26,039 nucleotides of DNA from a virus (IMGVR_UViG_2690315742_000005:1-26039), one strand, 5' to 3'. Shown: positions 1,358 through 25,245, numbered from the stretch's first letter. Numbers and translations are program-made. The notes: a model not told the origin generated them from the letters alone.

Positions 1358-1408
1358 TAATGCTTCCCTTTAAGTTATTACGATGGAACAGACCATAGAA
1401 ATGGCAAT

Positions 1409-1430
1409 AAAAAACCGCCCGGAGGCGGTT
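1409..1430 (-). terminator. rho-independent terminator candidate downstream of the 1450..1770 gene
   Basis: On the minus strand a 7-bp perfect stem AACCGCC/GGCGGTT (loop 4 nt) is followed by TTTTTT, about 20 bp after the stop at 1450. Confidence 0.5.
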
Positions 1431-1449
1431 CAATTATCATCTCGATAAA

Positions 1450-1770
1450 CTAAATCAGATCACCAATGTATTTTGCACTAATTGAAATTTGCATCTGAGG
1501 CATTCCGACCACAGATCCATTTAACAGGTAATCACGTCCTCGTTCCTGCAAAGAAAGACTCAATTCAAAGTTCTTTACCCCAGGGAAAACCGAGGTGACA
1601 TTTAAATCATGCTGCGATACGCGCAGAATAAGTTGGCTACCGTCAATTTTTCCCTGATACGTAAAACCAAAATCTCCGCCGTTTACTGCATTGTTTTTGA
1701 CAACTACGGTACCATTACCAAAATCACGTTGATTGCTTCTGAAAACAACAAAATAGATACCATCTTTCAT
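1450..1770 (-). CDS. hypothetical protein (AT-rich single-gene cargo between spanins and HNH)
   Basis: 106-aa ORF with markedly lower GC than neighbours, its own downstream terminator, flanked by non-coding AT-rich DNA (1771..1862); no recognisable motif. Confidence 0.45.
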   Translation of the reverse strand: MKDGIYFVVFRSNQRDFGNGTVVVKNNAVNGGDFGFTYQGKIDGSQLILRVSQHDLNVTSVFPGVKNFELSLSLQERGRDYLLNGSVVGMPQMQISISAKYIGDLI

Positions 1771-2132: not shown

Positions 2133-2409
2133 CCGCAACAGCCACTTTGATATCTTCCTGGGTTCTCTGTGACTCCAGTGCGATCTGCTGTTTTGCATGT
2201 TGATTCGCCTCCTGAATGATGTTCGTTATTGCCATAGTACGCAGAACATTCGCGGTGATAGCCTCAGTAGAATCAGCTCGCTGTTCCGCAGCATCAGCAC
2301 GCTTCTGCTCCTCCAGAAACTTTCCATGATAGTGATTCGCTGACCAGACAAGACCACCAGCGACACAAGCAATAAACGTTAAAATGAGCGCCCAATAACT
2401 CATCTTCAT
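2017..2409 (-). CDS. i-spanin Rz
   Basis: 130-aa ORF with N-terminal TM helix (WALILTFIACVAGGLVW) followed by a charged, coiled-coil-like region; immediately downstream of endolysin with 4-bp overlap; Rz1 overlaps its 3' end. Confidence 0.75.
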   Translation of the reverse strand: MKMSYWALILTFIACVAGGLVWSANHYHGKFLEEQKRADAAEQRADSTEAITANVLRTMAITNIIQEANQHAKQQIALESQRTQEDIKVAVADDDCASRPVPAAAADRLRKYANSLRPGSGSSVTSQPDG

Positions 2410-3020
2410 ACCAGCAGCGCCGCCCGCGCCTTGTTGTATCGGACCTTACGATCCTCAATACCGTTCAAACCGCCGTTAATGATGCGCGTAACACGGTTAA
2501 TATCGGCACCGTAGATCATGCAACCTTTAGAGGTGTAGAACCATGCAGCTGAGCGCGCAGCCTGTAGTTCCTGTTCCAGTTGTTCAGGTGAAGTCACCAG
2601 ATCTAACTTCAGCGCCGCGCCACAGATGCGATAATTATGGAGGCCAGTGATTTGAATTAATCCTCTACCACGATATTTCCAGCCATCACCTGGTGCTTTG
2701 TTACCCAGTCGGTTGCTATACACCAGATTGGCAATAGCATCCTGACGAGCTGCATGTCCGGATGTTCTGCCAAGGGCATCAGCCTGCTGCTGTGTGATCC
2801 TCTTTCCGAACGTCGCCACAAGCGCAGATGGTGTGTAGTTAAGATTTTCAACTACGGCGCTAAACCCCATCGACTCATGGCCTACCTGAGCGATAAACAT
2901 TGCCTGATCCGCTGGTGCTGTAATGCCGAATTCCTTCATCGCCGCATCAATGTGCGGAAACCAGCGCGCAGCCAGCCCGGCGCTAATACCAGCCGCCTTT
3001 TGAAATAATTGTTGGTTCAT
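2406..3020 (-). CDS. endolysin, glycoside hydrolase family 19 (chitinase-like lysozyme)
   Basis: 204-aa ORF; FIAQVGHESMGF, YRGRGLIQITG and NRVTRIINGGLNG resemble GH19 catalytic-core motifs of phage endolysins; sits in a holin-endolysin-Rz/Rz1 cassette. Confidence 0.85.
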   Translation of the reverse strand: MNQQLFQKAAGISAGLAARWFPHIDAAMKEFGITAPADQAMFIAQVGHESMGFSAVVENLNYTPSALVATFGKRITQQQADALGRTSGHAARQDAIANLVYSNRLGNKAPGDGWKYRGRGLIQITGLHNYRICGAALKLDLVTSPEQLEQELQAARSAAWFYTSKGCMIYGADINRVTRIINGGLNGIEDRKVRYNKARAALLV

Positions 3021-3301
3021 TAGTGCCTCAGATGATCAACCAGACGTGCAACGTTGCCTCTGACAGCCACCAGCACGGAAAGAAAAATAGTGTTCGCCAC
3101 GATAATGGGCCATGAGGAATGGGGATAAATCCCACAGAGATAGGCCAACGGAACAGCACTGTATGTAACAGTAATCAGCCAGGCTAAACGTGAAACCCAA
3201 GGACGATGCCGCGAATCACCACGACGATAAAACATCAGAGTAATAACAACACAAGCACATAACAGCGCATTTATAGTTGCTGTCGGGTCATTTAGCTCCA
3301 C
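3020..3301 (-). CDS. holin/antiholin-like small membrane protein
   Basis: 93-aa ORF with 2-3 hydrophobic helices, immediately upstream of and overlapping the endolysin start. Confidence 0.55.
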   Translation of the reverse strand: MELNDPTATINALLCACVVITLMFYRRGDSRHRPWVSRLAWLITVTYSAVPLAYLCGIYPHSSWPIIVANTIFLSVLVAVRGNVARLVDHLRH

Positions 3302-3674: not shown

Positions 3675-3721
3675 TTAGCCCCCTCTTAATTGCTGTTGGT
3701 CCTCTCAGAACGAGGGGAAAC

Positions 3722-3745
3722 AAAAAAGGCCGCATTAAGGCGGCC
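3722..3745 (-). terminator. rho-independent terminator candidate downstream of the 3765..4361 gene
   Basis: Minus-strand hairpin GGCCGCC-TTAAT-GCGGCC followed by TTTTTT, 20 bp after the stop of the 3765..4361 ORF. Confidence 0.5.
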
Positions 3746-3764
3746 TTGGTAAGGTATAGTTTTT

Positions 3765-4361
3765 TTAAGATAAACTTTGATTGATATACTCATGACACCC
3801 AAAAATAAAGGCGTTTTGTGCATCAATAAATGACTTTTTTTCTTCCGGAGTAAAATACCCTTTTGTAAAACATACTTTTAGCGCTTTTTGAAGATCTGCC
3901 GTCAGGGTTATCAACTTACAACCTTCCTCATCAGGCCTTATTAATAGAAGTAATTTATTTTTACTTATTTCAGCGGCCTTTATTGGAACTTGAATCTCCT
4001 CAGGGAAAACACCCTTAGCCAATATATCCATATTCTTATTTCCGACCAGATGCCATTGCTCAAATGTGCTGGCCAACATAATTACGTCTGTCACATGCTC
4101 AGCGCCAGCAAAACGTATTTGTTGCGCCAATTCTTTATTAGTATTCAAGTGAGCCTGTAATGTGGCTAAGGCAAAATTTTCTTTGATTGCCCTGTATGCA
4201 ACCCAACCAGTTATTCCTGCGGCAATAACGCCTGCAAGAGCAGTAATGAGTGTTTCAAAAGGAAAGGAAGAACTGATTTCAATTGGCGGTAATTTTTCTA
4301 TTACCAAGGTCAACTCGCCAGTAGTTTTTTCGAAAGCGTACGGTACGTTTTGCCAAGTCAT
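3765..4361 (-). CDS. hypothetical single-pass membrane protein (AT-rich cargo gene between Q and holin)
   Basis: 198-aa ORF, low GC, one predicted TM helix (LITALAGVIAAGITGWVAY) near the N-terminus, bracketed by terminator hairpins on both sides; occupies the Q-to-lysis slot. Confidence 0.55.
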   Translation of the reverse strand: MTWQNVPYAFEKTTGELTLVIEKLPPIEISSSFPFETLITALAGVIAAGITGWVAYRAIKENFALATLQAHLNTNKELAQQIRFAGAEHVTDVIMLASTFEQWHLVGNKNMDILAKGVFPEEIQVPIKAAEISKNKLLLLIRPDEEGCKLITLTADLQKALKVCFTKGYFTPEEKKSFIDAQNAFIFGCHEYINQSLS

Positions 4362-4392
4362 GAAGCCTCCTGAGTTTCAGAGGAATCATAAC

Positions 4393-4415
4393 AAAAAAAC
4401 CCGCTCAATGGCGGG
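4393..4415 (-). terminator. rho-independent terminator candidate downstream of Q (tR'-like)
   Basis: Minus-strand hairpin with CCCGC/GCGGG stem (loop ATTGAG) followed by TTTTTTT, located 50 bp after the stop of the Q-like gene. Confidence 0.5.
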
Positions 4416-4467
4416 CTCTTAATGTTGTGTTGCTCAGTTCGCTTTAACGTCCCGAGCCTACCACAAT

Positions 4468-5046
4468 TTAAGCACTTTCTTGCTCACTCTGCAACTTAAA
4501 TCTGTCGCTATTTGTGCCGAATGCGTCACAAACTGGAGCGTACAGGATCGATTCTGCAAGACTTAGCCAAGTGTCAATGCGTCGACGACAGGTGATCAGC
4601 GGCCAGTCAGGATGTTTAGCCTGCAGTTCATTGGCCATCTGCAACTTGCTCTTACGAAGACGATACCGGTCAACAATCACGCTATAGAGCGATCGGTAGT
4701 CATCATTCATCAGTACTGAAGCAATGACACCGTCCACTAACAACCCTTCTTCATCTGAACAGAACGCCAGGCCGCTTTTATTTTTGCTGTTGAGAATTTC
4801 ACGCAGGTACGCTTCAAGTTCAGGCTTGGTGATACCCGCTATCTTCATCCGGCGTAGCGCTTCATTGATAGCTGTCTTGGTGATTTTCCCGGATGCCAGA
4901 AGCTGGTTAAACATGTTTCCACCACTACCACCGCCGATATAAGACCAGCGGCCCCACATGCGCAACTTGCCTTGTATCCAGATACTTTCCAGAGTACGAA
5001 GGCGAACCATTTCACCTGATTTGCCAACTTCAGAAGGATTAATCAT
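4468..5046 (-). CDS. late-gene antitermination protein Q-like (Phage_antitermQ-like)
   Basis: 192-aa ORF; LRMWGRWS... and the SDEEGLLVDGVIASV...YRSLYSVIVDRY segment resemble the LERWGAW / DD..ICGCM...LLVDYYV pattern I recall for Q-like antiterminators; sits immediately upstream of a terminator and the lysis genes. Confidence 0.55.
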   Translation of the reverse strand: MINPSEVGKSGEMVRLRTLESIWIQGKLRMWGRWSYIGGGSGGNMFNQLLASGKITKTAINEALRRMKIAGITKPELEAYLREILNSKNKSGLAFCSDEEGLLVDGVIASVLMNDDYRSLYSVIVDRYRLRKSKLQMANELQAKHPDWPLITCRRRIDTWLSLAESILYAPVCDAFGTNSDRFKLQSEQESA

Positions 5047-5060
5047 TTAGCATTCTCCAC

Positions 5061-6056
5061 TTACGCCAGTACGCCTATTGCCAGCGCACGATCGATAAAA
5101 CGAAATATCAGCTCCAGCTGGGAGCCATACTTCTCTTCAAATGCCACGGTATCCGCATGCAGCTCGTCGTGATGCTTTCTGCACAAAGGCAACACAAAGA
5201 GGTCATGCGCTTTTGTACCCATTCCACCCTGACCGTGACCTATCAGGTGGTGGGGATCATCAGCAGGCTTTCCACAACATGCACACGGCTGTGTCTTAAC
5301 CCAGCGCGTGTACTTTTCATTAACCCAGCGGCGACGTTTGGGGCGTAACATAAAAGACTCCGGCGACTCCGGATCCACTTTCAGCGCCAGCACCTTTTTC
5401 GCCTTATCCTGGATGATGCTGGTGGCAGGAACCGAAGGCATAAGGTCACTTTCCCGGGTAACAGACGGCACAACAGGCTTCGGTAATCTCAGTGCCTTAC
5501 GGGCTGCACTTTCCGGTAAGGCATCCGCCAGATCATTACGAATCAGCCACCAGCACAGTTCCGGCATTGTCACAACGTGACTATCATCAAAACCGAGATC
5601 CCGACGCACAACAGACAACACCCAGCGGGCACTGTTATCCGTTGCCATTGATTCCAGCCGTTCCGTGAACTGATCGCGCAGCTGGTTATCGCAGTGCCAG
5701 CACAAACGGATTGCGCCCGGAGCGTGTCGCATTGTTGTCATGTTCTCGCTGTGCCAGTCGGAATGAGGCCACTGGCAGCCTTTTTCACGAAGTAACCAGC
5801 TTTCAAGACATTCCACGCCACCAGCACGACGGATCACTGCCTCATTGCGGAACACGGCCCGAACGGCAGGATCATCCGCCAGCGGTTGTGATGCCGCCGG
5901 AACGGCACCACTGGCGAAAGATGAATAACGTTCCGGCTCAGGCTCCAGCAAGACACGCCCCTGCATAAACAAGGGCATCAGCTCTGAACCTGGTCTGAAC
6001 AATACGATCCCCATACGCGGGGCAATTTCAGGGGTCAGTAGTGCTCTCACGGTCAC
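5061..6056 (-). CDS. DUF968-like prophage protein (HNH/NinG-like C-terminus)
   Basis: 331-aa ORF; Cys/His-rich C-terminus CACCGKPADDPHHLIGHGQGGMGTKAHDLFVLPLCRKHHDELH resembles DUF968/NinG-type prophage proteins; position in the nin-like region upstream of Q. Confidence 0.5.
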   Translation of the reverse strand: MTVRALLTPEIAPRMGIVLFRPGSELMPLFMQGRVLLEPEPERYSSFASGAVPAASQPLADDPAVRAVFRNEAVIRRAGGVECLESWLLREKGCQWPHSDWHSENMTTMRHAPGAIRLCWHCDNQLRDQFTERLESMATDNSARWVLSVVRRDLGFDDSHVVTMPELCWWLIRNDLADALPESAARKALRLPKPVVPSVTRESDLMPSVPATSIIQDKAKKVLALKVDPESPESFMLRPKRRRWVNEKYTRWVKTQPCACCGKPADDPHHLIGHGQGGMGTKAHDLFVLPLCRKHHDELHADTVAFEEKYGSQLELIFRFIDRALAIGVLA

Positions 6057-6057
6057 C

Positions 6058-6867
6058 TCAATGAACGGTATCGAGCAGCTTTAACAGCTCAGGGAATCGG
6101 GATTCGAAGAAATGCGGCTGCGTCTCGCGCGGATTTGCGGGACTGGTGATGTTCTTGCCGAACATGCAGCCTTTCGCCGTCAGCGACCAGAATTTTTTGA
6201 TGTTGTTAATCGCAGTGCGGCTGTATCGTTCGCGCTGCTCGACGATCCCCAGCTTCACCATCTGGTGATATGCCTGATTAGCCGTCAGGCGGATACCATA
6301 CTGCTTCAGCAGTGCACTCAGTGACAGCGTAGGGCGACTTGAGCCATCGGGTGCATCGGCAGGAGCATCAATTGCATAGCGCGGAGCCAGATTCGGTAAG
6401 CCAACAGCCTCCTGGAGTTTCTGACAGGCACCAAGCACAGATGAGTTAGACAGGTTTAATTCCCGACGCATAAAGTCCAGCAGAATCACACCAGCCTGCA
6501 TCTTGTCAGCAGCCTGTCCGGATAATTTTTCCGGTGCGCTGGTTACCATGTCGAAAGTACGGATCACCTTCAGATGGAATGACGGGCTGATCCACATTGC
6601 ATAGGCATACACCAGTTCCTTGCAGACATAAGTTCCCCGTTCATTTCCCCCATGAATCACACTCACCGGGTCAACACCCAAATTCTGGGTGTTGGTCAAT
6701 TCATGAACAAGTTCAACAGTTTGTTGGCTGGAAAGAAACTTTCCTGGTTCCTTGGTTCTGGCATTTGCACCAGATGCTACTGCTGCGCGATGCAGATCGT
6801 TCAGGCTGTAACGCCCATAAGCATCACGACGAACTTCAATACCATCAATAACCATCAGATTATTCAT
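6058..6867 (-). CDS. KilA-N domain protein (antirepressor-like)
   Basis: 269-aa ORF; N-terminus MNNLMVIDGIEVRRDAYGRYSLNDLHRAA...YVCKELVYAYAMWISPSFHLKVI matches the KilA-N fold pattern, with a C-terminal extension. Confidence 0.65.
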   Translation of the reverse strand: MNNLMVIDGIEVRRDAYGRYSLNDLHRAAVASGANARTKEPGKFLSSQQTVELVHELTNTQNLGVDPVSVIHGGNERGTYVCKELVYAYAMWISPSFHLKVIRTFDMVTSAPEKLSGQAADKMQAGVILLDFMRRELNLSNSSVLGACQKLQEAVGLPNLAPRYAIDAPADAPDGSSRPTLSLSALLKQYGIRLTANQAYHQMVKLGIVEQRERYSRTAINNIKKFWSLTAKGCMFGKNITSPANPRETQPHFFESRFPELLKLLDTVH

Positions 6868-9558: not shown

Positions 9559-9791
9559 GCTGCACCTCCGAGATGCTTCATGTTTTTTCCGGAGCGAAAG
9601 GCTATAAGCGGCATACTGACGCGGTAATTACGGCCCAGCGGTTCACAAACCACCTTCTGACATTCACGGTCAACCAGGCTAACACGTAGAACATGCCCTG
9701 CAGGCGTGGTGTACCACTGCCCAACTGTAGGAATTGATGTTTTTTTACGCTGAAGCAAACGGCAAATATTGAGGAACAACGGATTAAGCAT
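9555..9791 (-). CDS. hypothetical small protein (early operon)
   Basis: 78-aa ORF translationally coupled (4-bp overlaps) to both flanking genes; no recognisable motif. Confidence 0.4.
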   Translation of the reverse strand: MLNPLFLNICRLLQRKKTSIPTVGQWYTTPAGHVLRVSLVDRECQKVVCEPLGRNYRVSMPLIAFRSGKNMKHLGGAA

Positions 9792-10620
9792 GACGATGCC
9801 CTCCGCTGATATTCAGGAGACGGTGAATATGAAAATTAGCCTTATCCGCCAAACGAATACGTTCAGCCTGCAAGTTAAGAAGCGTTTCTACCAGAACCTG
9901 ATGCGCCTGCGGATCCGAAAGAGTTACCTTGCGCAGAGCACGTAGTGCAGTTGTTACATAACTGAGTTTATGTAAGTCTTCATCATTCAGACGAGTGAGG
10001 GCTGGGACAGTAGCCATGATGGCAGCCTCCTTGATCGGTGAAATACTTCCACCACCGGAAACGCCAATTTCGCTGGTGGTGAACTGAACGGGGTTGGCGT
10101 AACCGGTGATCAAGGAAACCGGCGCATCTTTCGATGCCCCCGCCCAGCCCACCATAACTTTGATGTGAGCAAATGCGGACGATAAAAAAGACGCTGGCGC
10201 GTCATATATCGCCTTGATCAGTTCCAGGACGCCAATCCCGGCACCCGCTTTATAAGGTGCCTGAACAGTGTAACGTCCCGGAATGGCAGAATCAATGTGC
10301 TGGTGGTCCTTCACACTCAACAAAATCACGCCTGAATTTCCACAAAGGACTAAAGCACTCATGCGGGTAGTCTTTGCGAAGATAGATAACGCGCTGTGTT
10401 TCTGGCTCCCAACGAATAACATGGACATAAAGCCCTCTTCCGTCACGAAACCAGCGGTTAAGTTCCTGCACAACTCGCCCCCCACAGTCAGGTAAAGTTC
10501 TCTGTGGTTACTTACAGCCAGGTGATTTGGTAATCTGCATTCATGCCGTAACAACAGGTGTTCAGCGACGCTGACCACCAGCTGTTGCGACAAACGGTTA
10601 TTTGCCGTTAAACTGTTCAT
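9784..10620 (-). CDS. hypothetical protein (early operon, unknown function)
   Basis: 278-aa ORF in operon context between the cII-position gene and the replication gene; Gly-rich stretches (GWAGASKD, GVSGGGS) but no confident family assignment. Confidence 0.5.
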   Translation of the reverse strand: MNSLTANNRLSQQLVVSVAEHLLLRHECRLPNHLAVSNHRELYLTVGGELCRNLTAGFVTEEGFMSMLFVGSQKHSALSIFAKTTRMSALVLCGNSGVILLSVKDHQHIDSAIPGRYTVQAPYKAGAGIGVLELIKAIYDAPASFLSSAFAHIKVMVGWAGASKDAPVSLITGYANPVQFTTSEIGVSGGGSISPIKEAAIMATVPALTRLNDEDLHKLSYVTTALRALRKVTLSDPQAHQVLVETLLNLQAERIRLADKANFHIHRLLNISGGHRHA

Positions 10621-14082: not shown

Positions 14083-14289
14083 ATGCTGAACCTCGATTGT
14101 GTTCCTATCTCAACTTATTGCAAAGAAACTGGCGAAACTCCTGAAGCAATAAACAAACGTGTACAGCGCGGTGTTTGGCGTGAAGGTGTTCAGGTTTTAA
14201 AGGTTGAAGGCGTTAAGGAGAGGTGGATTGATCTTAGTGAGGTTGCAAAATGGGCCAGACAAAACTGCTCAAACTACCGCGCGGCGTAA
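14083..14289 (+). CDS. excisionase (Xis-like)
   Basis: ORF 14071..14289; likely start ATG 14083 (GGAGAA RBS upstream). Small basic protein with winged-helix-like KRVQRGVWREGV segment, immediately upstream of and overlapping the integrase gene. Confidence 0.6.
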   Translation: MLNLDCVPISTYCKETGETPEAINKRVQRGVWREGVQVLKVEGVKERWIDLSEVAKWARQNCSNYRAA

Positions 14290-15416
14290 CAATCAGGAAA
14301 CACCGCCAGGGAGAAACGATCAATATAACTTTCACCTACAAAGGAGTTAGATGTCGTGAGCCGCTTTCCAATCTAGAAGTAACACCAAAGAACATTAAAT
14401 ACGCCGAGCGTACACTCGGCGAAATCCATAATAAGATCGAAAGGGGAACATTCATTTATGCAGAATATTTTCCCCGTTCTGCTCGTTTGAAAATTTTTGG
14501 TAATGCTGCTGCAGGCAAAACGGTAAAGATGTACCTGGACGAATATCTTGAAATCTGCGAAACAAGAAAACTTTCACCCTCTACGATTGGTGGCTATAAA
14601 AAATGCCGTAGTGCGTTAGCCTCACTTCACATTTGCCCTGCAAGTGAATTAACACCAGCAACCCTGAAAGCGTGGATTCAAAGCCAGAAAACAACCTTAA
14701 AAACCATTCGCAACCAGTTATCTTTCCTGCGGTCAGCACTTGATGAAGCCGTGACCGATGGGGTACTTCAAATTAACCCCGTATCGTTAGTAACAGCTTC
14801 GCGCTACCAAAGTGATAAGTCAGAAGCAGAAAGCAGCTATGTGGTTGATCCGCTATCACCAGCAGAAGTTGATGCATTATTAGCAGCAGCCGGAAACAAA
14901 CAATGGGAAAATCTGTTCCGGTTCGCCATACATACAGGCCTGCGTAGTTCTGAATTATGTGCCCTTCGATGGCGTGATATCGACTTTGTTGGAAAAACTG
15001 CCCATGTCCAGAGCGCAAGTGTTGTCGGTGTTATCAAAGGGACAAAGACAAAAGCAGGTACTCGTAAAGTTGAACTGACAGAAGAGGCAATGTTGGCGCT
15101 GATAAATCAGAAGCCATTTACATTCATGAAGGATGCTACTGTCTTTGAAGACCCAAAGACCAATAAGCCTTGGGCAAGTGCTGATGCAATAAGGAAAAAA
15201 GCATGGGTGCCAACATTACGAAAAGCAGGTATTCGTTACAGAAACCCATATCAAACCAGGCATACATTCGCCACCCGCCATATCAGCCGGGGAGCGAACC
15301 TGTTTTGGCTTGCAGCTCAAATGGGGCATAAAGGGCCTGAGATGCTTTTCAGGCACTATGGTCGATATCTCAAAGAATACGACGGAAAAAGCTCCATCAA
15401 ATACATTATACAATGA
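14250..15416 (+). CDS. tyrosine integrase (lambda Int family)
   Basis: 388-aa ORF; N-terminal arm-binding-like domain; C-terminal catalytic region with conserved R (TGLRSSELCALRW), HTFATRHISRGANL and GHKGPEMLFRHYGRYL (H-x-x-R ... Y). Confidence 0.9.
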   Translation: MGQTKLLKLPRGVTIRKHRQGETINITFTYKGVRCREPLSNLEVTPKNIKYAERTLGEIHNKIERGTFIYAEYFPRSARLKIFGNAAAGKTVKMYLDEYLEICETRKLSPSTIGGYKKCRSALASLHICPASELTPATLKAWIQSQKTTLKTIRNQLSFLRSALDEAVTDGVLQINPVSLVTASRYQSDKSEAESSYVVDPLSPAEVDALLAAAGNKQWENLFRFAIHTGLRSSELCALRWRDIDFVGKTAHVQSASVVGVIKGTKTKAGTRKVELTEEAMLALINQKPFTFMKDATVFEDPKTNKPWASADAIRKKAWVPTLRKAGIRYRNPYQTRHTFATRHISRGANLFWLAAQMGHKGPEMLFRHYGRYLKEYDGKSSIKYIIQ

Positions 15417-15428
15417 TTATGGCGGCAT

Positions 15429-16058
15429 TTATTGCCGCCCACATAATTCATTATGCCATTTATCCAAGTAACAATCCAATTGTTTTAATGTTTTCAATAC
15501 ATATACAGGCTTACGTGGCGGATGATTTTTTTGAAAAGAATCATATAAATGCATTATGAAATCGACACAAGCACTAGATACATTCTGAGCGCGAAAAACC
15601 CTATATGACTTATTAAAACAATATGATTTCTCACATTCCATAGTAGCTTCATCTATAATATTAGAAAAATACGAAATTGTTATTTTTATCCCCCTCTCAT
15701 CGAGAAGATTAATGTATTTATTTATTTGTATGGCTTTTCCATGAATTGCCGTTAAATATATTTTCGCCGACTGAGTATGCAATCCATTAGAGTTCTTAAA
15801 ATTTTTTTTCTTAAATGGATTAGAATCTGGTGGTGTTGACTTATTAACCCAGTAATCCAGAGACAAATCTGATATTTCGTTTAAAATTTTAGCAATCGCA
15901 TCTATAATCGATTTAGATTCAGAGCGAGTAGCAATCTTCAGTGAATTATTGTAAGTAACAAACCATCCAATAAACACTAAGATAATACTCACAACACTAA
16001 ACATCCATGCGTAAGTGGACACCCCTGCAAGGGTGTCCTTAATATCAACGGTGTTCAA
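15429..16058 (-). CDS. hypothetical membrane protein (third gene of AT-rich cargo operon); start uncertain
   Basis: ORF 15429..16142; predicted TM helix (MFSVVSIILVFIGWFVTY) then Lys/Asn-rich soluble domain; very low GC. Candidate starts: TTG at 16058 (GGAG 5 nt upstream, 1 nt after the upstream stop), ATG at 16004, or ATG at 16142 (would overlap the upstream gene by 83 nt). The 3' end overlaps a hairpin (15423..15441) shared with the convergent int gene. Confidence 0.5.
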   Translation of the reverse strand: MNTVDIKDTLAGVSTYAWMFSVVSIILVFIGWFVTYNNSLKIATRSESKSIIDAIAKILNEISDLSLDYWVNKSTPPDSNPFKKKNFKNSNGLHTQSAKIYLTAIHGKAIQINKYINLLDERGIKITISYFSNIIDEATMECEKSYCFNKSYRVFRAQNVSSACVDFIMHLYDSFQKNHPPRKPVYVLKTLKQLDCYLDKWHNELCGRQ

Positions 16059-16059
16059 A

Positions 16060-16401
16060 TCAACTCCTTTGGAAAGGCTTCCTTTCTGGATTAGCCATTT
16101 CAATATATCTAAAAATTTGATCTTTATAGAACGGCAAATCACTTTTTATAATTAGTTTTGCCTTAATGTCAGCCTTAGGTACACCTTCCTTCCTAACAAG
16201 CCCTCCAAAGGCCTCCTCTAGAAACGAAGAACCAATCCCATGATTTATACCCGTAAAATCTACGACAACCTCACGCTCACCAGATTTTAATGCAGGAACC
16301 AGAAAGTCCTTACGAAAACGCTCAGCACTGTTCGGGCTGTCAGACTTGAACCTTCCAAATGGCATCTTTGAGAAATCCCTTGCTATGACGATGTTAACCA
16401 T
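16060..16401 (-). CDS. STAS-like (anti-sigma-factor-antagonist-like) small protein
   Basis: 113-aa ORF; EVVVDFTGINHGIGSSFLEEAFGGL matches the STAS/SpoIIAA-like pattern (hydrophobic strand, D-F/L-S/T-G-V, then SSGL/SSFL helix); start overlaps the upstream gene stop by 8 nt. Confidence 0.5.
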   Translation of the reverse strand: MVNIVIARDFSKMPFGRFKSDSPNSAERFRKDFLVPALKSGEREVVVDFTGINHGIGSSFLEEAFGGLVRKEGVPKADIKAKLIIKSDLPFYKDQIFRYIEMANPERKPFQRS

Positions 16402-17317
16402 CTTCTCCTCTCCTCGGAACTAATGACCATTCAATCAATGTTCCCGGCATGTACTCAGGTATCCACTCGCATTTGGGAACCTCATTTCTTGAATTATAGC
16501 TGTACTTAACATTCCCTGTGAACACCAAAAGTGATTCTGAATTCGCACAGCCAGACCCTATAGGTCTCTTTATATCCTCAGAACCATTACCACGTCCAGC
16601 GTTAACATATCTGGACTGTCCTCCTGTCAGGGCTGTTGACACAGATGTCACGTCGTCATACCCAGTAAACAACGGAGAGGCTGAAGTAAATGATTTATGT
16701 ATGCCAAGCCCAAGATCATAAATAATAAAGACAACCTTGTCTGTGTCAGGGTTGTACCAACAACTCTGCCACCATCGTTTCCCTTGCATATGCTCTATAG
16801 CACCAGCAAAGTCTGGATGTTCATATGCATGATATGAAACATTCAGCATTGCCTCACTAAGGGCTGAGGAGACCAAAAGATATTGCTCAAATGTGAGAAT
16901 TGCTTTTGAATCAATAAATTCCATCGTTTTAGCCCAATGTTCATACGGTTCCACAGCAGACTGAAAGTACCTGCGTTCCTTAGTAAGAACATCTAATTTA
17001 TCAACTGTATTTGCCATTAGAGCAATCGATAACCCCGTCCCAACAATATATCGATGCCCATACGGATTATTTTCTTTTTTCGGCCAAATGAATCGAAGAC
17101 TACTTGTGCCGAATGCCATAAAATAAGCCCTACTGATGATAGCAAACAACCTTACGCTAGCTGCAGCACCTGCATATTCTACTGTCGAAAAGTCTATAAC
17201 CACTTGTCCAGATGCTCTCGCAAGGGTGTTATCAACTGAGTTCAAAAACTTAGCTGTAACACGGCGATCAGAATCATTATAAAGGCACAATCTTTTTGGG
17301 GAAATCAACAGTTCCAT
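16394..17317 (-). CDS. GHKL/HATPase_c-type ATPase or Ser-kinase-like protein with possible N-terminal STAS-like region
   Basis: 307-aa ORF with GAGGTG RBS 6 nt upstream. Candidate Bergerat-fold motifs: N-box-like LSEAMLNVSYHAYEH, G1-like FIIYDLGLGIHK (D-x-G-x-G), G2-like NAGRGNGSE. N-terminal QVVIDFSTVEYAGAAASVRLF resembles a STAS-like strand-helix. Low GC. Confidence 0.5.
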   Translation of the reverse strand: MELLISPKRLCLYNDSDRRVTAKFLNSVDNTLARASGQVVIDFSTVEYAGAAASVRLFAIISRAYFMAFGTSSLRFIWPKKENNPYGHRYIVGTGLSIALMANTVDKLDVLTKERRYFQSAVEPYEHWAKTMEFIDSKAILTFEQYLLVSSALSEAMLNVSYHAYEHPDFAGAIEHMQGKRWWQSCWYNPDTDKVVFIIYDLGLGIHKSFTSASPLFTGYDDVTSVSTALTGGQSRYVNAGRGNGSEDIKRPIGSGCANSESLLVFTGNVKYSYNSRNEVPKCEWIPEYMPGTLIEWSLVPRRGEDG

Positions 17318-17611: not shown

Positions 17612-18094
17612 ATGGAAGAACTTCACTTTGTTTACATCAATGCAAATGGTCGTATCGCTGTTCACTCTATACAGAGCATCAGTTATAGCGAAAATCATAT
17701 ACAGGGCATTTGTAAGAACACCGATCGAATAAAAACCTTCCGAAAAGACCGCATTCTTAAACAGTACGATTCACCAGAACAAGCCATTCAGGAATGCGCG
17801 TCATTCCTCCCCGAAAGCTACTCACATCTCACTAAGCAGTCTGGTCCGAAAAAAAATACATTCGATGTGTGTTTCACCGGATTTAAGAAAGCAGATAAAG
17901 AAAGATTGGTTGATAAGGCGAATGAACAAGGATTAACGGTAAGAACCTCTATAACCCAAAGCCTTCAGATGCTCTGTTGCGGTTACAATGCAGGCCCATC
18001 AAAAGTATCGGCAGCCAGGATGAAAGGCACAATCATCATAGATGAGCCTGGCTTTATACATTTTCTTGAAACGGGTGAGATTCCAGATGAATAA
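17612..18094 (+). CDS. BRCT-domain protein (cargo gene between att core and ogr)
   Basis: 160-aa ORF with AAGAGG RBS; C-terminal 80 aa (FDVCFTGFKKADKERLVDKANEQGLTVRTSITQSLQMLCCGYNAGPSKVSAARMKGTIIIDEPGFIHFL) follows the BRCT pattern seen in NAD-ligase C-termini (F-TG, G-V..S.t....l..G.naGsK..kA...g..ii.E..F); N-terminal 75 aa unassigned; AT-rich. Confidence 0.5.
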   Translation: MEELHFVYINANGRIAVHSIQSISYSENHIQGICKNTDRIKTFRKDRILKQYDSPEQAIQECASFLPESYSHLTKQSGPKKNTFDVCFTGFKKADKERLVDKANEQGLTVRTSITQSLQMLCCGYNAGPSKVSAARMKGTIIIDEPGFIHFLETGEIPDE

Positions 18095-18407: not shown

Positions 18408-19508
18408 TTATTCCATTTCAAGATCATCAATCTTCACTTCGAGTTCAATACTGGTTGTAAAACCGTTATCCGGGCTGACGGTATGTGTCAGAGTCGTAAT
18501 GGTCCATTCCGCATCATCTATCGGCTGTTTAAAACCACTGACCTTCACAGGCATTTCCGTGTAGAGATCTGCCCGCCCTTCTGCCAGTTGTAGCGAAAAT
18601 GACGCAACGCCGCGTTGCAGGCGTTCCCACTGCATTTTCGCCGCTCGTTCGGCGTTGCTCCGGTTGGCATAAGTGCGATTAAGTACCAGCACGTTTTCAT
18701 CCGTACCCACCAGGTAATCGCCCTGCTTCGCTTCTGGCTCTTTCTTCTGCTTCTTAGTTCTGCGCTTACGCTTCACCGTGGTGCTTTCTTTCTTCGCAGG
18801 TTCGCGGGTATGCAACCAGCTGGCAATTACGCCCGTGTAGGCTCCGCGATCTGCCAGGGTAAATCGGTGACTGTCGCCGTCCTTGCGTGTGATAGTGATC
18901 ACTGGCAGAGGTTTACCAGTGGCGCTTTTGCCCTGCCCCTGCCGGATGAATAACAGATTGCCATTTTTCACCGACGCGATGGCACCGTACTGTCGCGCCA
19001 GCCGCATCAGAAAACTGCCGTCACTCTCATTAGTCTGGTCTATATGCTCCACGGGCTTATCCGACAGGTCTTTACCCAGTGCCATCTTCAGCTTGTGCCG
19101 CGCGGCTATTTCCTTCACCACTTCCCCGACGGTGGTCTTATGCCACGATTTTTCACGGCGGGTATTCAGCGTTTCCCGAAAATCAGCACTTCGCGCCCGG
19201 ATAGTCAGGCGGTCCGGTGCGCCAGTGTGTTCAATCTCGTCCACTGTGAATGCCCCTTTCGGGAAAAGCGGCTGCCCCTTCCAGCCCAGCGCCAGCGTAA
19301 TAACCGCACCACGGCGCGGCAGCACGATTTTTCCGTCAGCGTCATCCAGCTCCAGATCAAGCTGGTCCGCTTCAAAGCCCCGGTTATCCGTCAGCGTCAA
19401 ACTCATCAGGCGGTTATCCAGCACAGTGGTGATATCCCTGCCCTCAATACTGATGCTGAATGCGGGAGTTTTGTTGCCTTTGTTAAGCAGTTCAGAGCTG
19501 AAATTCAC
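18408..19508 (-). CDS. D: P2-like tail protein D
   Basis: 366-aa ORF directly downstream of U and upstream of ogr, the conserved P2 order FI-FII-E-T-U-D-ogr; size and character fit gpD. Confidence 0.8.
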   Translation of the reverse strand: MNFSSELLNKGNKTPAFSISIEGRDITTVLDNRLMSLTLTDNRGFEADQLDLELDDADGKIVLPRRGAVITLALGWKGQPLFPKGAFTVDEIEHTGAPDRLTIRARSADFRETLNTRREKSWHKTTVGEVVKEIAARHKLKMALGKDLSDKPVEHIDQTNESDGSFLMRLARQYGAIASVKNGNLLFIRQGQGKSATGKPLPVITITRKDGDSHRFTLADRGAYTGVIASWLHTREPAKKESTTVKRKRRTKKQKKEPEAKQGDYLVGTDENVLVLNRTYANRSNAERAAKMQWERLQRGVASFSLQLAEGRADLYTEMPVKVSGFKQPIDDAEWTITTLTHTVSPDNGFTTSIELEVKIDDLEME

Positions 19509-19990
19509 GACAGCAGCCCTCCCACCGTTTTACTGATATCGCTTAAGGCAGACGTTGCCGTGTCCTGCAAATTATTCAGTTGCGCACTGAGATCACCGAA
19601 CATATCGGACAGGGATTCATCCACTCGTTTGAGCGACAGGGTGAACTCAATCCGGCGCGGCATACCGTCGCGGAAAAACTCCGTTTTAGTCTGATTCAGT
19701 CCCTCAATCACATACATGCCGTAAATCGTGCCGCTGCCTTCAATCAGGGGCCATGCTTTCCCCTGTTCTGCCATCTGCTCCAGTGCCAGCAACGACAGCC
19801 TGCCGCCTGTTATTTCCGGCATAAGAACACCGGAAAGCGTCAGCATGTCGTTTTCCGGTCCCAGAAACTGCGTGGACGGACGTCGGTTTACCCGACTGTT
19901 TGCCGCATGTCGCCAGCTGCGTTGATACTGCAGTTCCTGATACGGAACGGTGCGCAGCATAAACACGTACAATCCCAGCACCATCATCAT
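19505..19990 (-). CDS. U: P2-like tail protein U
   Basis: 161-aa ORF between T and D with 4-bp overlaps; size matches P2 gpU. Confidence 0.8.
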   Translation of the reverse strand: MMMVLGLYVFMLRTVPYQELQYQRSWRHAANSRVNRRPSTQFLGPENDMLTLSGVLMPEITGGRLSLLALEQMAEQGKAWPLIEGSGTIYGMYVIEGLNQTKTEFFRDGMPRRIEFTLSLKRVDESLSDMFGDLSAQLNNLQDTATSALSDISKTVGGLLS

Positions 19991-22900
19991 GCGTCGTATC
20001 CCCCCTGATCGCTGTAGTTACTCCTGGCTTTTGCCTTCAGCCTGCGTTCACGTTCATCAAGCTGGCGTGCCACCTCCCGCGCAATATCCTGCGCACTTTG
20101 TCCTGGCTGCGTCTGAATGATGATCTGCGTCGGTGCCTCAATCCGTTGAACGAGCGGCACAGTGGCTGCGCGACTCACAATTGCTTCTCCACCTTTCGCG
20201 GGAAGTGCCAAAGGGTGCAACGGTGGAAGCTCTGCTGGCGCGGCAGCAACGCCCATCATTCCGGCAACAACGGCAGCCAGTGCAGCTGTATTTCTCCGGC
20301 TGGTCACATTTGCCGGGCCGTTAACAATTTCCGGCCCGTTTTCACCGACGATGCCAAACTGCCCGCGCGGGATATACCCACCGCTGTCATACATCCCCGC
20401 AAAGCCATATCCCCATGATGGAAAACCACCCGATGGCATCATCACTTTACCGTCTGCATTCACCGTCGCAGGTTGCTGACGCGTCACGCTTTCCGGCAGT
20501 TTTGCCTTTGCGGCCTCTTTACTGACAATGCCGAGCTTCTCCAGCAACCAGGAAACGCCGGATTTCAGGGAGTCCAGCGGATGCATGACCATATTCAGCC
20601 CTTCCGCCAGTGCCTCCCCGAATCGCCGCCCCATTGCCGCTGCGCTCTGCAGTTCGGCAGAGGTCGACTTAACGGGCGTCAGCAGATCAGTAAACCAGCC
20701 CCACAGCGCCTGCACTTTGTCGCCAATCCACTGGAACACGGGCTTAAGCGGTTCGAACGCTGCACTGATGGGACCTGCCGCCGCTTTGAATCCTTCCACC
20801 ACGCCACCGAGAAATGCGGTGATGGGTTGCCAGTATTTCCAGACAACCAGCGCCACGCCCGCCAGTGCAGTAACCACAAGACCTATCGGACTGAGCAGAG
20901 CACCTAACAGACCAGATATGGCATACAGGGCAACGCGCAGCATCGCCAGCGGGCCGGATGCGAGCACACGCAGCACCGCGCCTGCGGCAGCCAGCCCACC
21001 GCGTAGTGCTGCCAGTGGATTCATAAACATCACAGCAACAGCACGTAAACCGGATAATCCAGACCGCAAAAGTGCAACCGGCGCACCTGCTACAGTTTTC
21101 AGGACATTCCCCATCAGTGATACCGTGCGACGCAAAGACGACAACGGAGCAGTAAGTAAACCCGCTGCGTTGCCCGATGAAGCAAGCCCGCGTCGCAGCA
21201 GTGCCAGTGGTGCGCCAGCCAGCCAGGACAACGCGCTGCTGGTTCGAGTTACTGCTGCCGTAACGGAAGGTAACGTTTTGATACCCAGCACAGAGAATCC
21301 CAGACGGATCACTGCCAGCGGCCCCAGCACTGCAGCCAGCGCCACCGCTAAGGTGCCGAGGCCTACGGTAACCGCAGCCACAACAGCCACTACTTTCATC
21401 AGTGTGCCTGTCAGTTCCGGGTTAGCTTCCACCCAGCGGCGCAACGCCCCCGTGACGCTTTTCACCGTGTACAGAATATCCATCAGCGGCTGGCGCAGCG
21501 TTTCGCCCAGGCTGCTGAAGGTGTTCTGCGCTCCGGTTTTGACCAGCAACCACTGAGCAGAAAGTGAGTCTTTGTTGATGTCGGATTCTTTCTGCATCGA
21601 ACCGAGCGCATCATTGCCCGCTGTCAGTTTTAGCTGGCGCTGTAGTTCCGGCAGGTTGTTTGCCAGTTTCGCCGCGTCATCGCCAAACTCTTTACCAAAC
21701 AACATGGTCATGGCAGACAGACGCTTGTCCTGCGGCAGTGCGTTCACCTTCTCCAGTACACGCTGGATGGTTCCCATCGCATCCTTCGTCATCTGCTTTT
21801 CAATCACTTCAGGATTGAGTTTCAGCAGATTCATCCCTTCAAAGAAACTCTTGCTTTGCATGGTGGCAATGGACAATTCACGCACCATCGCGTTTGCTGC
21901 ACTGGCTGCAACCTCCGGCGCAGCGCCCAGTGTCAGAAAGGTGGAACCCAGTGCCGCCGCTTTACGATAATCCAGACGGTCAGCCACACCGCCCAGACGT
22001 TGCATCACATCAATGATGTCCGCCCCTTTCGACATGGCGTTATCATCCAGATAGTTCAGCGCATCGCCGAGCTGTTCAATATTGCGGGTAGGTATTTTGT
22101 AGAGCTGGGCGATTTTCCCCAGACTTTCTGACAGTTCATCCGCTGGCAGCTCAAAGGCTGTTGCCGCCTTTGCTGCCGTACTGGCGAAGGCCAGCAGGTC
22201 ACGTTTCTGGTCTTCCCAGCTGTCGTCAGGGTTTGCCACGTTCATGCGCGCACCACCTTCAACCAGTGCAGCGAAGTCCACCGCACCGTTTTCCATCGGC
22301 AACTGTTCGCTGGCAGCCTTGATGGCATCCTGCATTTCGTAAAAACGCGCAGTGCGGTTGCCATTATCGTCACGCAGACCATTGACCTGCTTTGCCACAC
22401 CTTTCATGGCATCTTCCATGCTGGCATAGCTTTTTACCGCCGCCATCACTGGCGCGCCCATTGCCAGCCCTGCAGCCGTGGTGGTGGCTCCGGCTCCTGC
22501 GATACGATCGCGCACTTCAAGCCGTCTTGAGTATTGTTCTCTGGCAGCGTTCATCCGTGCCTGTTGTTCACCCAGACGTTTAAGTGCTTTTTGCTGGCCC
22601 TCCAGTGCCTGCCTTGTTTCTTCAGCATTTTTCTTAAGTTCTCGCTGGGCACTACTGAGTTGCCTGGTATCAATCCCTGATTCTTTAAGTGCCTGACGTT
22701 GTCTCTGGACCGCCCCCAACAAGCCGTTATAGGTCTGCTGAAGTTCCTGTACTCGTGTTTTGGCCTGACTGAATAACTTTGCCTGCGCGGCGGTTGGCCT
22801 GTTAGTGGCAGCAAATTGTGTGGCGAGTTTTGCCGCCTCTTCGCGGGCTGCGTTCAGGTTGTTGGCTGTTATGGCTAGTTGCGAGCGCGTCTTGCGAAAC

Positions 22901-23064
22901 TCATCAATTCTGCCAGCCTGCTTATTCAGTTCTTTGAGGCTGTTTCTGGTATTCTGAATTGCGCCAGCCAGCTCTTTCGAACTGGCCTGTGCAGCACGGA
23001 ATGGGCGGGTGAGTTTGTCAACCGCATTAAGAATGACCTGCAGACGCAGGTTGTTATCACTCAT
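19987..23064 (-). CDS. T: tail tape measure protein (gpT-like)
   Basis: 1025-aa ORF; N-terminal coiled-coil (Ala/Gln/Arg-rich) region, central hydrophobic Ala/Leu/Gly-rich repeats, C-terminal Gly-rich part; follows E/E' as in P2. Confidence 0.9.
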   Translation of the reverse strand: MSDNNLRLQVILNAVDKLTRPFRAAQASSKELAGAIQNTRNSLKELNKQAGRIDEFRKTRSQLAITANNLNAAREEAAKLATQFAATNRPTAAQAKLFSQAKTRVQELQQTYNGLLGAVQRQRQALKESGIDTRQLSSAQRELKKNAEETRQALEGQQKALKRLGEQQARMNAAREQYSRRLEVRDRIAGAGATTTAAGLAMGAPVMAAVKSYASMEDAMKGVAKQVNGLRDDNGNRTARFYEMQDAIKAASEQLPMENGAVDFAALVEGGARMNVANPDDSWEDQKRDLLAFASTAAKAATAFELPADELSESLGKIAQLYKIPTRNIEQLGDALNYLDDNAMSKGADIIDVMQRLGGVADRLDYRKAAALGSTFLTLGAAPEVAASAANAMVRELSIATMQSKSFFEGMNLLKLNPEVIEKQMTKDAMGTIQRVLEKVNALPQDKRLSAMTMLFGKEFGDDAAKLANNLPELQRQLKLTAGNDALGSMQKESDINKDSLSAQWLLVKTGAQNTFSSLGETLRQPLMDILYTVKSVTGALRRWVEANPELTGTLMKVVAVVAAVTVGLGTLAVALAAVLGPLAVIRLGFSVLGIKTLPSVTAAVTRTSSALSWLAGAPLALLRRGLASSGNAAGLLTAPLSSLRRTVSLMGNVLKTVAGAPVALLRSGLSGLRAVAVMFMNPLAALRGGLAAAGAVLRVLASGPLAMLRVALYAISGLLGALLSPIGLVVTALAGVALVVWKYWQPITAFLGGVVEGFKAAAGPISAAFEPLKPVFQWIGDKVQALWGWFTDLLTPVKSTSAELQSAAAMGRRFGEALAEGLNMVMHPLDSLKSGVSWLLEKLGIVSKEAAKAKLPESVTRQQPATVNADGKVMMPSGGFPSWGYGFAGMYDSGGYIPRGQFGIVGENGPEIVNGPANVTSRRNTAALAAVVAGMMGVAAAPAELPPLHPLALPAKGGEAIVSRAATVPLVQRIEAPTQIIIQTQPGQSAQDIAREVARQLDERERRLKAKARSNYSDQGGYDA

Positions 23065-24072: not shown

Positions 24073-25245
24073 TTACGCGCTGACCTGGCTGGCGAAATTC
24101 ACCAGGTACTGATCGGTGATGCGCTGGCGCAGCATCAGATTTTCAAGTGGCGGCACTGGCGTGTAGTCGTAGTCGATGGTGAGTTTTCCGGCTTTAAGCG
24201 TGTCTTTGTCGTTCACCGACTCATCCAACCAGCAATCACCACCAATGAGATAGCCCTGACTGACCAGGTTGCGCATTTTGGCGCGGATACCTTCGATAAT
24301 GTCGCGGGCCAGCGACGGGTTCAGCGGTTTGTCCACCGCCCACATATGTGCTTCTGCCATTGTGTCCATCAGTACCTGCGCTGTGCGGGTGTAGTTTTCG
24401 AAGGCAAAAAGCGGATCATCGCTCAGACAGCGGGAACCCCAGAAGCGGAAACCATCCTTGCGCACAAGCGTGGTGACGTCGTTCTGGTTAAGCAGTCCCG
24501 CATCGGTTGCCGGGTCCTGCAGATCCCAGAACACATCAGCAGAAATTCCGGTGACACCGTTCACGCCCACGTTGGACAGGCTTTTGTGCCACCCGGTCTG
24601 CTCATCAATTTTGGCACGCAGACCAAGCGCACGGGCGGTGGCATATGCCGTTGCTTCGGCATTCAGCACCGTGTCCCAGCCAGTAAAGTCGGGCCAGATC
24701 AGCATCCCTTCGCGCTGGCTGAAGTTTTCACGGTAAGTGATTGCCTCCTGCACAGTCTTGCAGCCATACGCTGACAGGTAAGCAAACCCACGCAGGCTTT
24801 GCGCCACACTCAGCAACTCAGTAGCTACCGCCTTGGTGTCGTGACCTGGTACACCCAGAATGCGCGGTTTAACGCCGAGCTGTGACTGAGCAGATAACAG
24901 AGCTTTCATGCCTGTTTTTTTACCTTCAGCAGTCACTGCGCCGATGATATTGGTCGTGGTTTCTTCTTCCGTTTCACCCTGCGGCACACGCACAACAACG
25001 GTCACGGGTTTTGCCTGGTCAGCGATGGCATCCAGCGAACGGGCCAGCGTGCCGGACTCACCCGCTTTACCGCTGGCAGTCAGCACATCAGTGATCAGCA
25101 CGGGTTTATTAAGAGGAAACATTTTTGCATCGGCATCATCGCCCGTGCAGACCATACCCACGATGGCGGTGCTCACCGTGGTAATGGATCGGGTGCCTTC
25201 GTTGACTTCAACAACGCGCACCCCGTGGTGGTAATCCTGAGCCAT
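24073..25245 (-). CDS. FI: contractile tail sheath protein FI
   Basis: 390-aa ORF; long identical stretches to P2 FI as I recall it ([112 protein letters not shown]). Confidence 0.9.

Follow-up and report, generated by a model that had tools for sequence, protein, structure and literature searches.

Lambdoid phages carry some of their most consequential cargo, including Shiga toxin, in the slot between the late antiterminator gene Q and the lysis genes. Occupants of this slot include stx1/stx2 in H-19B and 933W, nanS-p, tRNAs and the lc porin of PA-2. Such Q-to-lysis cargo has been described as a known kind of element of lambdoid phages (PMC3430580). A neighboring precedent comes from the morons, where HK97 gp15, in the account that PMC11364771 gives of Cumby et al. 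(2012), is a small inner-membrane protein excluding superinfecting phage. Here we analyzed a stretch of 26,039 nucleotides of viral DNA (IMGVR_UViG_2690315742_000005:1-26039, referred to as the window), which holds an Escherichia coli lambdoid prophage with its late genes on the minus strand. In its Q-to-lysis slot lies a gene (3765..4361, minus strand, ATG start) for a 198-residue bitopic inner-membrane protein of the PHROG 18859 family. Our analysis firmly supports that positions ~3720-4394 form a self-contained cargo cassette, the first gene after the terminator tR' and bracketed by two real terminators. It supports as firmly that the product of the cassette is a constrained bitopic membrane protein of an unannotated family.

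Followed in the late direction, the genes and sites are ordered as Q, a tR'-like terminator, the cargo gene, a second terminator, two holins, a GH19 endolysin and Rz/Rz1. The cargo gene has the position typical of stx: downstream of Q and tR', upstream of the lysis genes and on the same strand. On the left side of the slot is a Q-type late antiterminator of 192 residues (4468..5046, minus strand), which is a Q21-like DUF1133 protein. It matches PF06576/DUF1133 at 3.4e-92, PF06530 at 1.8e-8 and phrog_753 ('anti-termination protein Q-like') at 2.5e-68, and it has a weak but specific match to the Q21 structures 6P18/6JNX (E=0.003) that includes the W-x-G-W-L-x-x-W-G motif. On the right side is the first holin, PF16931 (3288..3674, minus strand). 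Over the 901 bases around the cargo gene, strain D10 and many further chromosomes show 100% identity; among 5426 complete E. coli genomes, only 32 have the cassette in full.

Comparison with related phages and prophages revealed that homology reaches ~3720/3747 from the holin side and 4393 from the Q side, and that the interval is not shared. In four aligned prophages or phages of the same Q type, the tR'-like terminator is conserved and the similarity ends exactly at the end of its T run. Sibling prophages hold other genes in the same slot, namely a family of 249/261 residues, an 85-residue protein, a TciA-annotated protein, UspF, tRNA-Thr and a multi-pass membrane protein encoded on the opposite strand. 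The first-pass annotation had proposed a single-gene cargo in this slot. The breaks of homology at both terminators and the unrelated genes in the siblings bear this out, and they indicate exchangeable cargo rather than a part of the lysis backbone. We looked for homology of the cargo protein to a structural or lysis backbone protein and saw none. Four of the alternative E. coli cargo proteins were scanned against Pfam and PADLOC, with no match. We notice that the 249-261-residue alternative cargo (L002 2721-3470 and L003 3169-3954, minus strand), a soluble protein also lacking a Pfam or PADLOC match, is likewise bracketed by tR' and a t2-type terminator (t2 being the second terminator of the present cassette) in other E. 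coli prophages.

The cargo protein matches PHROG 18859 over residues 1-198 of 198 (E=7.3e-91), which is its sole PHROG match; no Pfam family was found at E<=0.01 and no NCBIfam match. A word-indexed search returned only 11 clusters at 90% identity, from E. coli and Enterobacter. An exhaustive search with a hidden Markov model over 1.84 billion representatives gave 36 clusters at 50% identity, nearly all of ~190-230 residues. Every named member of the family is from Enterobacterales and labelled 'hypothetical'. All 33 aligned members match the unannotated phrog_18859 and nothing else consistently, with scattered weak matches of other members to 7 further PHROGs. A literature search on the accession, the PHROG identifier and the slot returned nothing on this family.

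We obtained the genomic contexts of the relatives by exact-protein look-ups and examined nine lineages: E. coli, four Enterobacter, Citrobacter, two Providencia-type and one metagenomic Enterobacterales bin. In 8 of the 9, the cargo gene lies directly between Q and holin. The Q proteins at these loci belong to PF06576 (Q21-like), PF06323 and PF03589 (lambda-Q-like). The holins include PF16931+PF05449, PF04971, PF05106 and unclassified ones (at least three Pfam families), and the endolysins are of the GH19, Phage_lysozyme and CHAP types. These contexts show that the family recurs in the same slot whatever the type of Q, holin or endolysin. In the ninth lineage, the gene stands beside int/xis, away from lysis genes, in an apparently decayed element. 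A divergent 188-residue neighbor was considered as a partner gene and rejected, as it is found only in the Providencia-type loci.

One of the Enterobacter copies deserves separate description. On the Enterobacter hormaechei chromosome, between prlC and yedK, a prophage remnant (L007 4878-5914) retains ~1 kb of recognisable homology. It has lost Q, and a small deletion disrupts the tR' stem, with the open reading frame (ORF), leader, terminator and S21-type holin kept. Homology to an intact relative starts 123 nucleotides upstream of the ATG. This copy may be domesticated and constitutively read, and as a remnant without Q it gives a hint of Q-independent use of the cargo gene. Separately, in the Enterobacter ludwigii prophage that carries a member of the family (L021 1-1833), we observed a PycTM protein beside a nucleotide-cyclase-like gene in the early region, a pair that resembles a Pycsar-type defence pair.

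Both junctions of the cassette coincide with terminators. The tR'-like intrinsic terminator at the left junction (AAGAGCCCGCC-ATTGA-GCGGG with T7; 4393..4420, minus strand) folds from 4420->4395 into a 10-bp stem, then the T7 run. The cassette terminator t2 at the right junction (AAGGCCGCC-TTAAT-GCGGCCTT with a T run; 3716..3747, minus strand) lies 17 nucleotides after the stop codon, and its hairpin (3747->3726) has an 8-bp stem with 6 GC pairs, then a T6 run. Hairpins on both sides of the gene had been noted before at 4393..4415 and 3722..3745; we recovered both at 4395-4420 and 3726-3747, a few bases off. Against dinucleotide shuffles, the folding z-scores are -5.0 for the tR'-like site (86-nucleotide region) and -3.8 for t2. 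A generic scan of 10 kb found 12 terminator-like sites where 11.4 were expected, which is not above chance, so the case for the two terminators rests on their position and on their conservation in relatives.

That conservation is visible across the nine loci of the family. A hairpin with a T run (dG -11 to -14 kcal/mol) precedes the ATG by 13-33 nucleotides in 6 of them and by 66 nucleotides in a seventh (L009). Past the stop codon, a hairpin with a T run is found at 16-19 nucleotides in 7 of the 9 loci and further downstream in the remaining 2, so that a t2-type terminator is kept in all nine as the gene's own downstream terminator, as in morons. The downstream stems vary in sequence with their pairing kept (GGCCGCC/GCGGCC, GGCTACC/GTAGCC, GGCTGCC/GGTGGCC with a G-U pair, and GAGGTCAC/GTGACC). 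Meanwhile, t2 is missing from sibling prophages that have a 98%-identical holin leader but the 85-residue cargo, where homology stops at 3719, and cassettes with other cargo carry a terminator very similar to t2 within the same layout of tR' and t2. This distribution indicates that t2 travels with the cargo cassettes and not with the holin. We also notice AAGGCTGCC-loop-GGCGGCCTTTTTTATTTCC, a near-consensus terminator that recurs in various cargo cassettes at their holin-proximal ends, before different holin families (L003 1001-1030 of the slot; L021/L023/L025 ~5615-5650; L015; L019), which looks like a shared linker for cassette exchange.

The gene itself differs in composition from its surroundings, as the first-pass annotation had stated, and quantitative analysis shows a real deviation. 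Its GC content is 0.384 (0.327 at third codon positions), compared with 0.478 for Q, 0.522 for the holin, 0.517 for the endolysin and 0.549 for the DUF968 gene. This value is at the 3rd percentile of all 597-nucleotide windows across the 26-kb window, with flanks of 0.51, and in 8 homologous loci the GC is also 9-17 points under that of the flanks. Deviant composition, replacement with sharp junctions and an own downstream terminator, which are marks of a moron, are all seen here. The ORF, the length of 198 residues and the single hydrophobic helix described earlier were all reproduced. The start is preceded by a strong Shine-Dalgarno sequence, AGGAGG (4366..4371, minus strand). Its core and its spacing to the ATG are kept in all five loci of the close clade, and AAGGAGGC(T/A)TCATG is kept in four Enterobacter loci.

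An AT-rich spacer between Q and holin could also hold a spurious or decaying ORF, an explanation that would suit the lack of database annotations for the protein and the presence of a frameshifted allele. We consider its probability practically negligible. The dN/dS of the cargo gene is 0.07-0.15 over a divergence at which synonymous sites are saturated, a value that already refutes such an origin. Length and architecture are kept down to 17-25% identity, the Shine-Dalgarno sequence is strong and conserved, and the AlphaFold model becomes confident once 33 sequences are used. Codon comparison of the relatives shows a real protein under strong purifying selection, and close homologues are full-length at 198 residues. 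In the frameshifted allele (P0002, E. coli, 224 residues; 16 member sequences on 31 contigs), the C-terminus is changed from residue ~175 onward and the reading frame runs on into the terminator region.

The protein consists of an acidic N-terminal tail (residues 1-36), a single transmembrane helix (residues 37-55, encoded at 4197..4253, minus strand; hydropathy peak 1.81) and a helical bundle (residues 57-197). Exactly one hydrophobic peak is present in each of the 33 aligned members, above the hydropathy threshold of 1.6 in 32 of them. With 12 close sequences, AlphaFold gave a useless model (pLDDT 37), and with the 33-sequence alignment the pLDDT was 83. In this model, residues 1-27 are disordered, the helix of residues 35-106 contains the transmembrane segment, and the helices of residues 121-140, 145-167 and 172-197 complete a four-helix bundle. 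Summed over the 33 members, the charges are +32/-64 in the N-terminal flank and +93/-34 in the C-terminal flank, and this bias predicts an N-out/C-in topology, with a periplasmic acidic tail of ~35 residues and a cytoplasmic four-helix bundle. A lipoprotein or secreted protein was rejected, there being neither a signal peptide nor a positively charged N-terminus. An i-spanin was rejected as well, with Rz/Rz1 already present separately at 1863-2409.

The opposite topology, N-in/C-out, would place the bundle in the periplasm as a decoy or binder related to the sensor domains of chemoreceptors or histidine kinases. We regard it as very improbable: the same flank charges clearly favor a cytoplasmic C-terminal domain, the N-terminus is not positively charged, and the cysteine counts range from 0 to 3 and are often odd. 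The identity to such sensors is 4-13%, and unrelated bundles score similarly. With the N-out/C-in arrangement as the predicted one, the conservation along the chain is uneven. The mean pairwise identity is 38% in the N-terminal tail, 48% in the transmembrane helix (the highest of any segment of the family), 26% in the juxtamembrane helix and 14% in the rest of the C-terminal domain. As the best-conserved part, the transmembrane helix suggests, from this pattern of identities, specific contacts inside the membrane.

Searches with the predicted fold were uninformative as to family. At E<=0.001, Foldseek had no match in BFVD or PDB, its results being only generic helical bundles, and a profile search of PDB sequences gave only designed or coiled-coil proteins at E>0.05. 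These results bear on the idea that the gene is host-directed cargo of lysogenic conversion, whose product alters the envelope, stress response or signalling of the lysogen or the induced cell and brings a fitness gain unrelated to exclusion. The idea is a serious contender, though unlikely. The matches by fold are generic, bundles of talin and catenin reaching almost equal scores, and the family is without an enzymatic or signalling output domain. Its distribution is narrow and patchy (32/5426 E. coli genomes, 36 clusters worldwide), and the quickly diverging cytoplasmic domain is more typical of conflict genes.

How the cassette is expressed can be considered from its position. Between the stop codon of Q and the terminator lies a conserved non-coding stretch (4421..4467, minus strand), the presumed PR'-like late promoter, Q-loading and pause region. 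After the Q stop, the block with ATTGTG(G/A)TAGGCTCGGGACGTTAAAGCGAACTGAGCA has one substitution across four prophages or phages with a DUF1133-type Q (including L002, L005 and L017), and the 3' end of Q varies although this adjoining non-coding block of ~45 nucleotides is near-identical. The stretch folds as a second hairpin upstream of the tR'-like terminator. Judged by this conservation, it is probably the late promoter, Q-loading and pause region of the DUF1133 type of Q. An exact assignment of PR' was tried and none is claimed, as several weak -35/-10 combinations fit. In the leader of the cassette, we read a candidate extended -10 element, TGTTATGAT (4385..4393, minus strand), 23 nucleotides before the ATG. 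TG(T/C)TATGAT is present at the same spacing in the Enterobacter cassettes L007, L023 and L025, behind a different Q family, and L021 has TGCTTTGAT.

Q-modified polymerase is unaffected by terminators. As the gene lies directly downstream of the tR'-like terminator on the late strand, it would be read by Q-modified polymerase on induction. Reading past both terminators, such a polymerase would make the cargo protein the first late product and an abundant one; from this arrangement and the biology of lambda, 82 and 21, we infer strong expression of the gene on induction, dependent on Q. On the other side, t2 is conserved in every lineage and terminators are powerless on Q-modified polymerase, which argues for regular transcription of the cargo gene by unmodified polymerase, a point that the first-pass annotation, with its expectation of expression on induction, had not raised. 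In the lysogen, transcripts may leak through tR' or start at the candidate TGnTATGAT in the leader and would give low-level expression of the cargo. They would stop at the cassette terminator, by which the holin would stay silent and the cell protected. The lysogen would then have a low, Q-independent expression of the cargo that is insulated from the lysis genes.

Taking the evidence together, we consider the best explanation of the whole to be a moron cassette with these two modes of expression, whose inner-membrane product takes part in phage-phage conflict, and we give this reading a probability of about 35%. The cassette would be a portable single-gene 'moron' acting as the first gene of the late operon. 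That the protein is an inner-membrane factor of phage-phage conflict, by exclusion or abortive infection, is a guess of low confidence; the first-pass annotation had named superinfection exclusion or a lysis regulator as possibilities. It is favored by the patchy distribution, the conserved membrane part next to a diversifying soluble part, the insulation by terminators, the Q-less remnant and the precedent of HK97 gp15. We speculate on two ways in which the protein could work. In one, acting at the inner membrane, it would keep the genome of a superinfecting phage from entering. In the other, it would be a one-gene abortive infection system, in which the variable cytoplasmic bundle senses the invader and the conserved transmembrane helix with the tail acts as the membrane effector.

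Several observations weigh against this reading. Neither by sequence nor by fold does PHROG 18859 match an exclusion or defence system. The cargo protein has no PADLOC-DB v2 match at E<=1, and PADLOC on the 33 members gave only scattered sub-threshold matches of 1-4 members each, the best being E=0.0005 for a cyclase model in 2 members. The protein matches neither SieB (PF14163) nor Imm (PF14373) of Pfam, nor any PHROG annotated as superinfection exclusion, phrog_18859 being itself of 'unknown function'. A tblastn search of 50,697 sequenced phage genomes found no family member, so that no activity in a functional phage is on record. A frameshifted allele is circulating in some E. coli. No empty slot turned up in a related phage, the 85-residue ORF being the least that any slot contained, so the 'insertion' is deduced from replacement. 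The putative promoter TGTTATGAT keeps 8 of 9 bases, a conservation no better than that of the rest of the leader; it is absent in the Providencia clade, where the gap from terminator to start is only 13-16 nucleotides, and for these two reasons we treat it as a candidate only. A two-hexamer promoter scan did not pick it up either. Finally, the very strict linkage to the start of the holin gene could point to a lysis-related role.

Such a role would be that of a lysis accessory indifferent to the type of holin, an abundant first late membrane protein that tunes the time of lysis through the membrane potential or a common host factor. Because every holin responds when the membrane potential is lost, a generic modulator can be imagined. 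The gene lies immediately upstream of the holin on the same strand, at a distance of ~85-90 nucleotides in the close clade, before holins of at least three Pfam families. It comes first after tR', with a strong Shine-Dalgarno sequence, and its layout of a short N-terminal segment, one transmembrane helix and a ~140-residue C-terminal domain recalls the class III holin T of T4. The single transmembrane helix and the position directly upstream of the holin are expected of a holin, yet they are necessary and not sufficient for one. We find the accessory role decidedly unlikely. The gene is dispensable, as unrelated genes, or just the 85-residue ORF, take its place in near-identical prophages whose holins are the same, and no holin, antiholin or lysis family of Pfam or PHROGs matches it. 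The phage is already equipped with two holin-family genes, an endolysin and spanins. The conserved terminator separates the gene from the holin for any polymerase that is not Q-modified, and one member adjoins int/xis, away from lysis genes. A more specific form, a portable lysis-clock module, would have the conserved acidic tail and transmembrane helix of an abundant first late product sense or alter the membrane potential and so advance or delay any downstream holin. It would account for a gene that follows each of the three Q families and precedes no fewer than three unrelated types of holin, and we see only a slim chance for it. A moron cassette with a product in phage-phage conflict remains the reading that we prefer.

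The remaining genes of the window place the cassette in its prophage. All on the minus strand, a KilA-N protein (6058-6867) is the first listed in late-transcription order and is followed by a DUF968/HNH protein (5061-6056) ahead of Q. Beyond the slot and the first holin come a second holin-family gene (3020-3301), the GH19 endolysin (2406-3020) and Rz/Rz1 (2017-2409 and 1863-2198). Next to these, we observed a second low-GC single-gene cassette (1403-1770, minus strand). Its 106-residue gene (1450-1770; GC 0.39), placed between Rz/Rz1 and the HNH/small-terminase genes, scores 26.7 bits for the GrlR-like PF16518 against a cut-off of 26.8, also matches phrog_2483 (unknown function) and has its own terminator at 1431->1412 (z = -4.6). 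The Tai defence genes of phi80 occupy the same position 'upstream of packaging' (PMC11364771).

In the early region of the prophage, at 10072-10260 (minus strand), Rfam models identify a C4 antisense RNA (10072-10159, 82 bits) and isrK (10184-10260, 63 bits). They adjoin an Ash-family gene (9784-10620), forming an antisense control module of the P1/P7 style. The integrase (14250-15416) marks the end of the lambdoid prophage. Beyond it lie three low-GC ORFs with no Pfam match (15429-16142, 16394-17317 and 17612-18094; GC down to 0.31), then P2-like tail genes, including gpD (18408-19508), the tape measure (19987-23064) and the sheath (24073-25245). The lambdoid and P2-like parts of the window are tandem prophages, and the low-GC block between the integrase and the P2-like tail genes may be a P2-type accessory hotspot.

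Our findings provide a comparative definition of how cargo is packaged in this slot. The left junction lies at the end of the tR' T run, the cargo brings along its own leader and terminator, and the whole unit moves between phages that differ in their Q, holin and endolysin modules. PHROG 18859 is a compact and strongly constrained one-gene family, which makes it a cheap and well-defined candidate for assays of exclusion or lysis timing. Should it be a defence gene, a one-gene family would be added, together with a further prophage hotspot to search; should it not be, it is an ordinary moron of unknown function.

Among known systems, several membrane proteins resemble the cargo in part. Like P22 SieA, lambda/P22 SieB, T4 Imm, RexB, Csx28 and the transmembrane effectors of CBASS/Pycsar, it is prophage-borne, small and located in the inner membrane, and its pairing of a conserved membrane part and a variable soluble part would fit a design of sensor and effector. 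Unlike these exclusion and abortive infection proteins, it has no matching Pfam, PHROG or PADLOC entry, with Csx28 appearing only at E=5.9 in a profile search. The four-helix sensors TorS, NarX/NarQ, Tar/Tsr and QseE resemble it in fold only, at 4-13% identity and with no match to Pfam 4HB_MCP. In contrast to them, the bundle of the cargo protein is predicted to be cytoplasmic, and the protein has a single transmembrane helix and ends at residue 198 with no transmitter or output domain. The class III holin gpT of T4 shares the length of ~200 residues, one transmembrane helix near residues 35-55, a large C-terminal domain and a place beside lysis genes. However, the cargo protein has the opposite predicted topology and no holin-family match, sibling prophages lack its gene, and two holin-family genes are already present.

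The closest likeness is to two described kinds of element. As in the morons (Juhala/Hendrix; HK97 gp15, lambda bor, lom), the unit is compact, deviates in GC and has its own terminator, sharp junctions and a plausible -10 element. The cargo protein has no sequence relationship to gp15, Bor or Lom, and in contrast to typical morons, the upstream bracket is the phage's own tR' and not a moron promoter, its own promoter being a candidate only. As in the lambdoid slot cargo such as stx, the gene sits on the late strand, after the late promoter and tR' and before the holin. It is likewise a single-gene or small-operon unit of deviant composition that is replaced in siblings, with strong expression expected when Q acts. 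It differs from such toxin, esterase, porin or tRNA cargo in its product, an unannotated bitopic protein of the inner membrane. A second difference is that not only the slot but PHROG 18859 as a family keeps to the position across three Q families. The kind of element is already well known. What is new is the protein family, its fidelity to the slot across three Q families and the precise junctions of the cassette.

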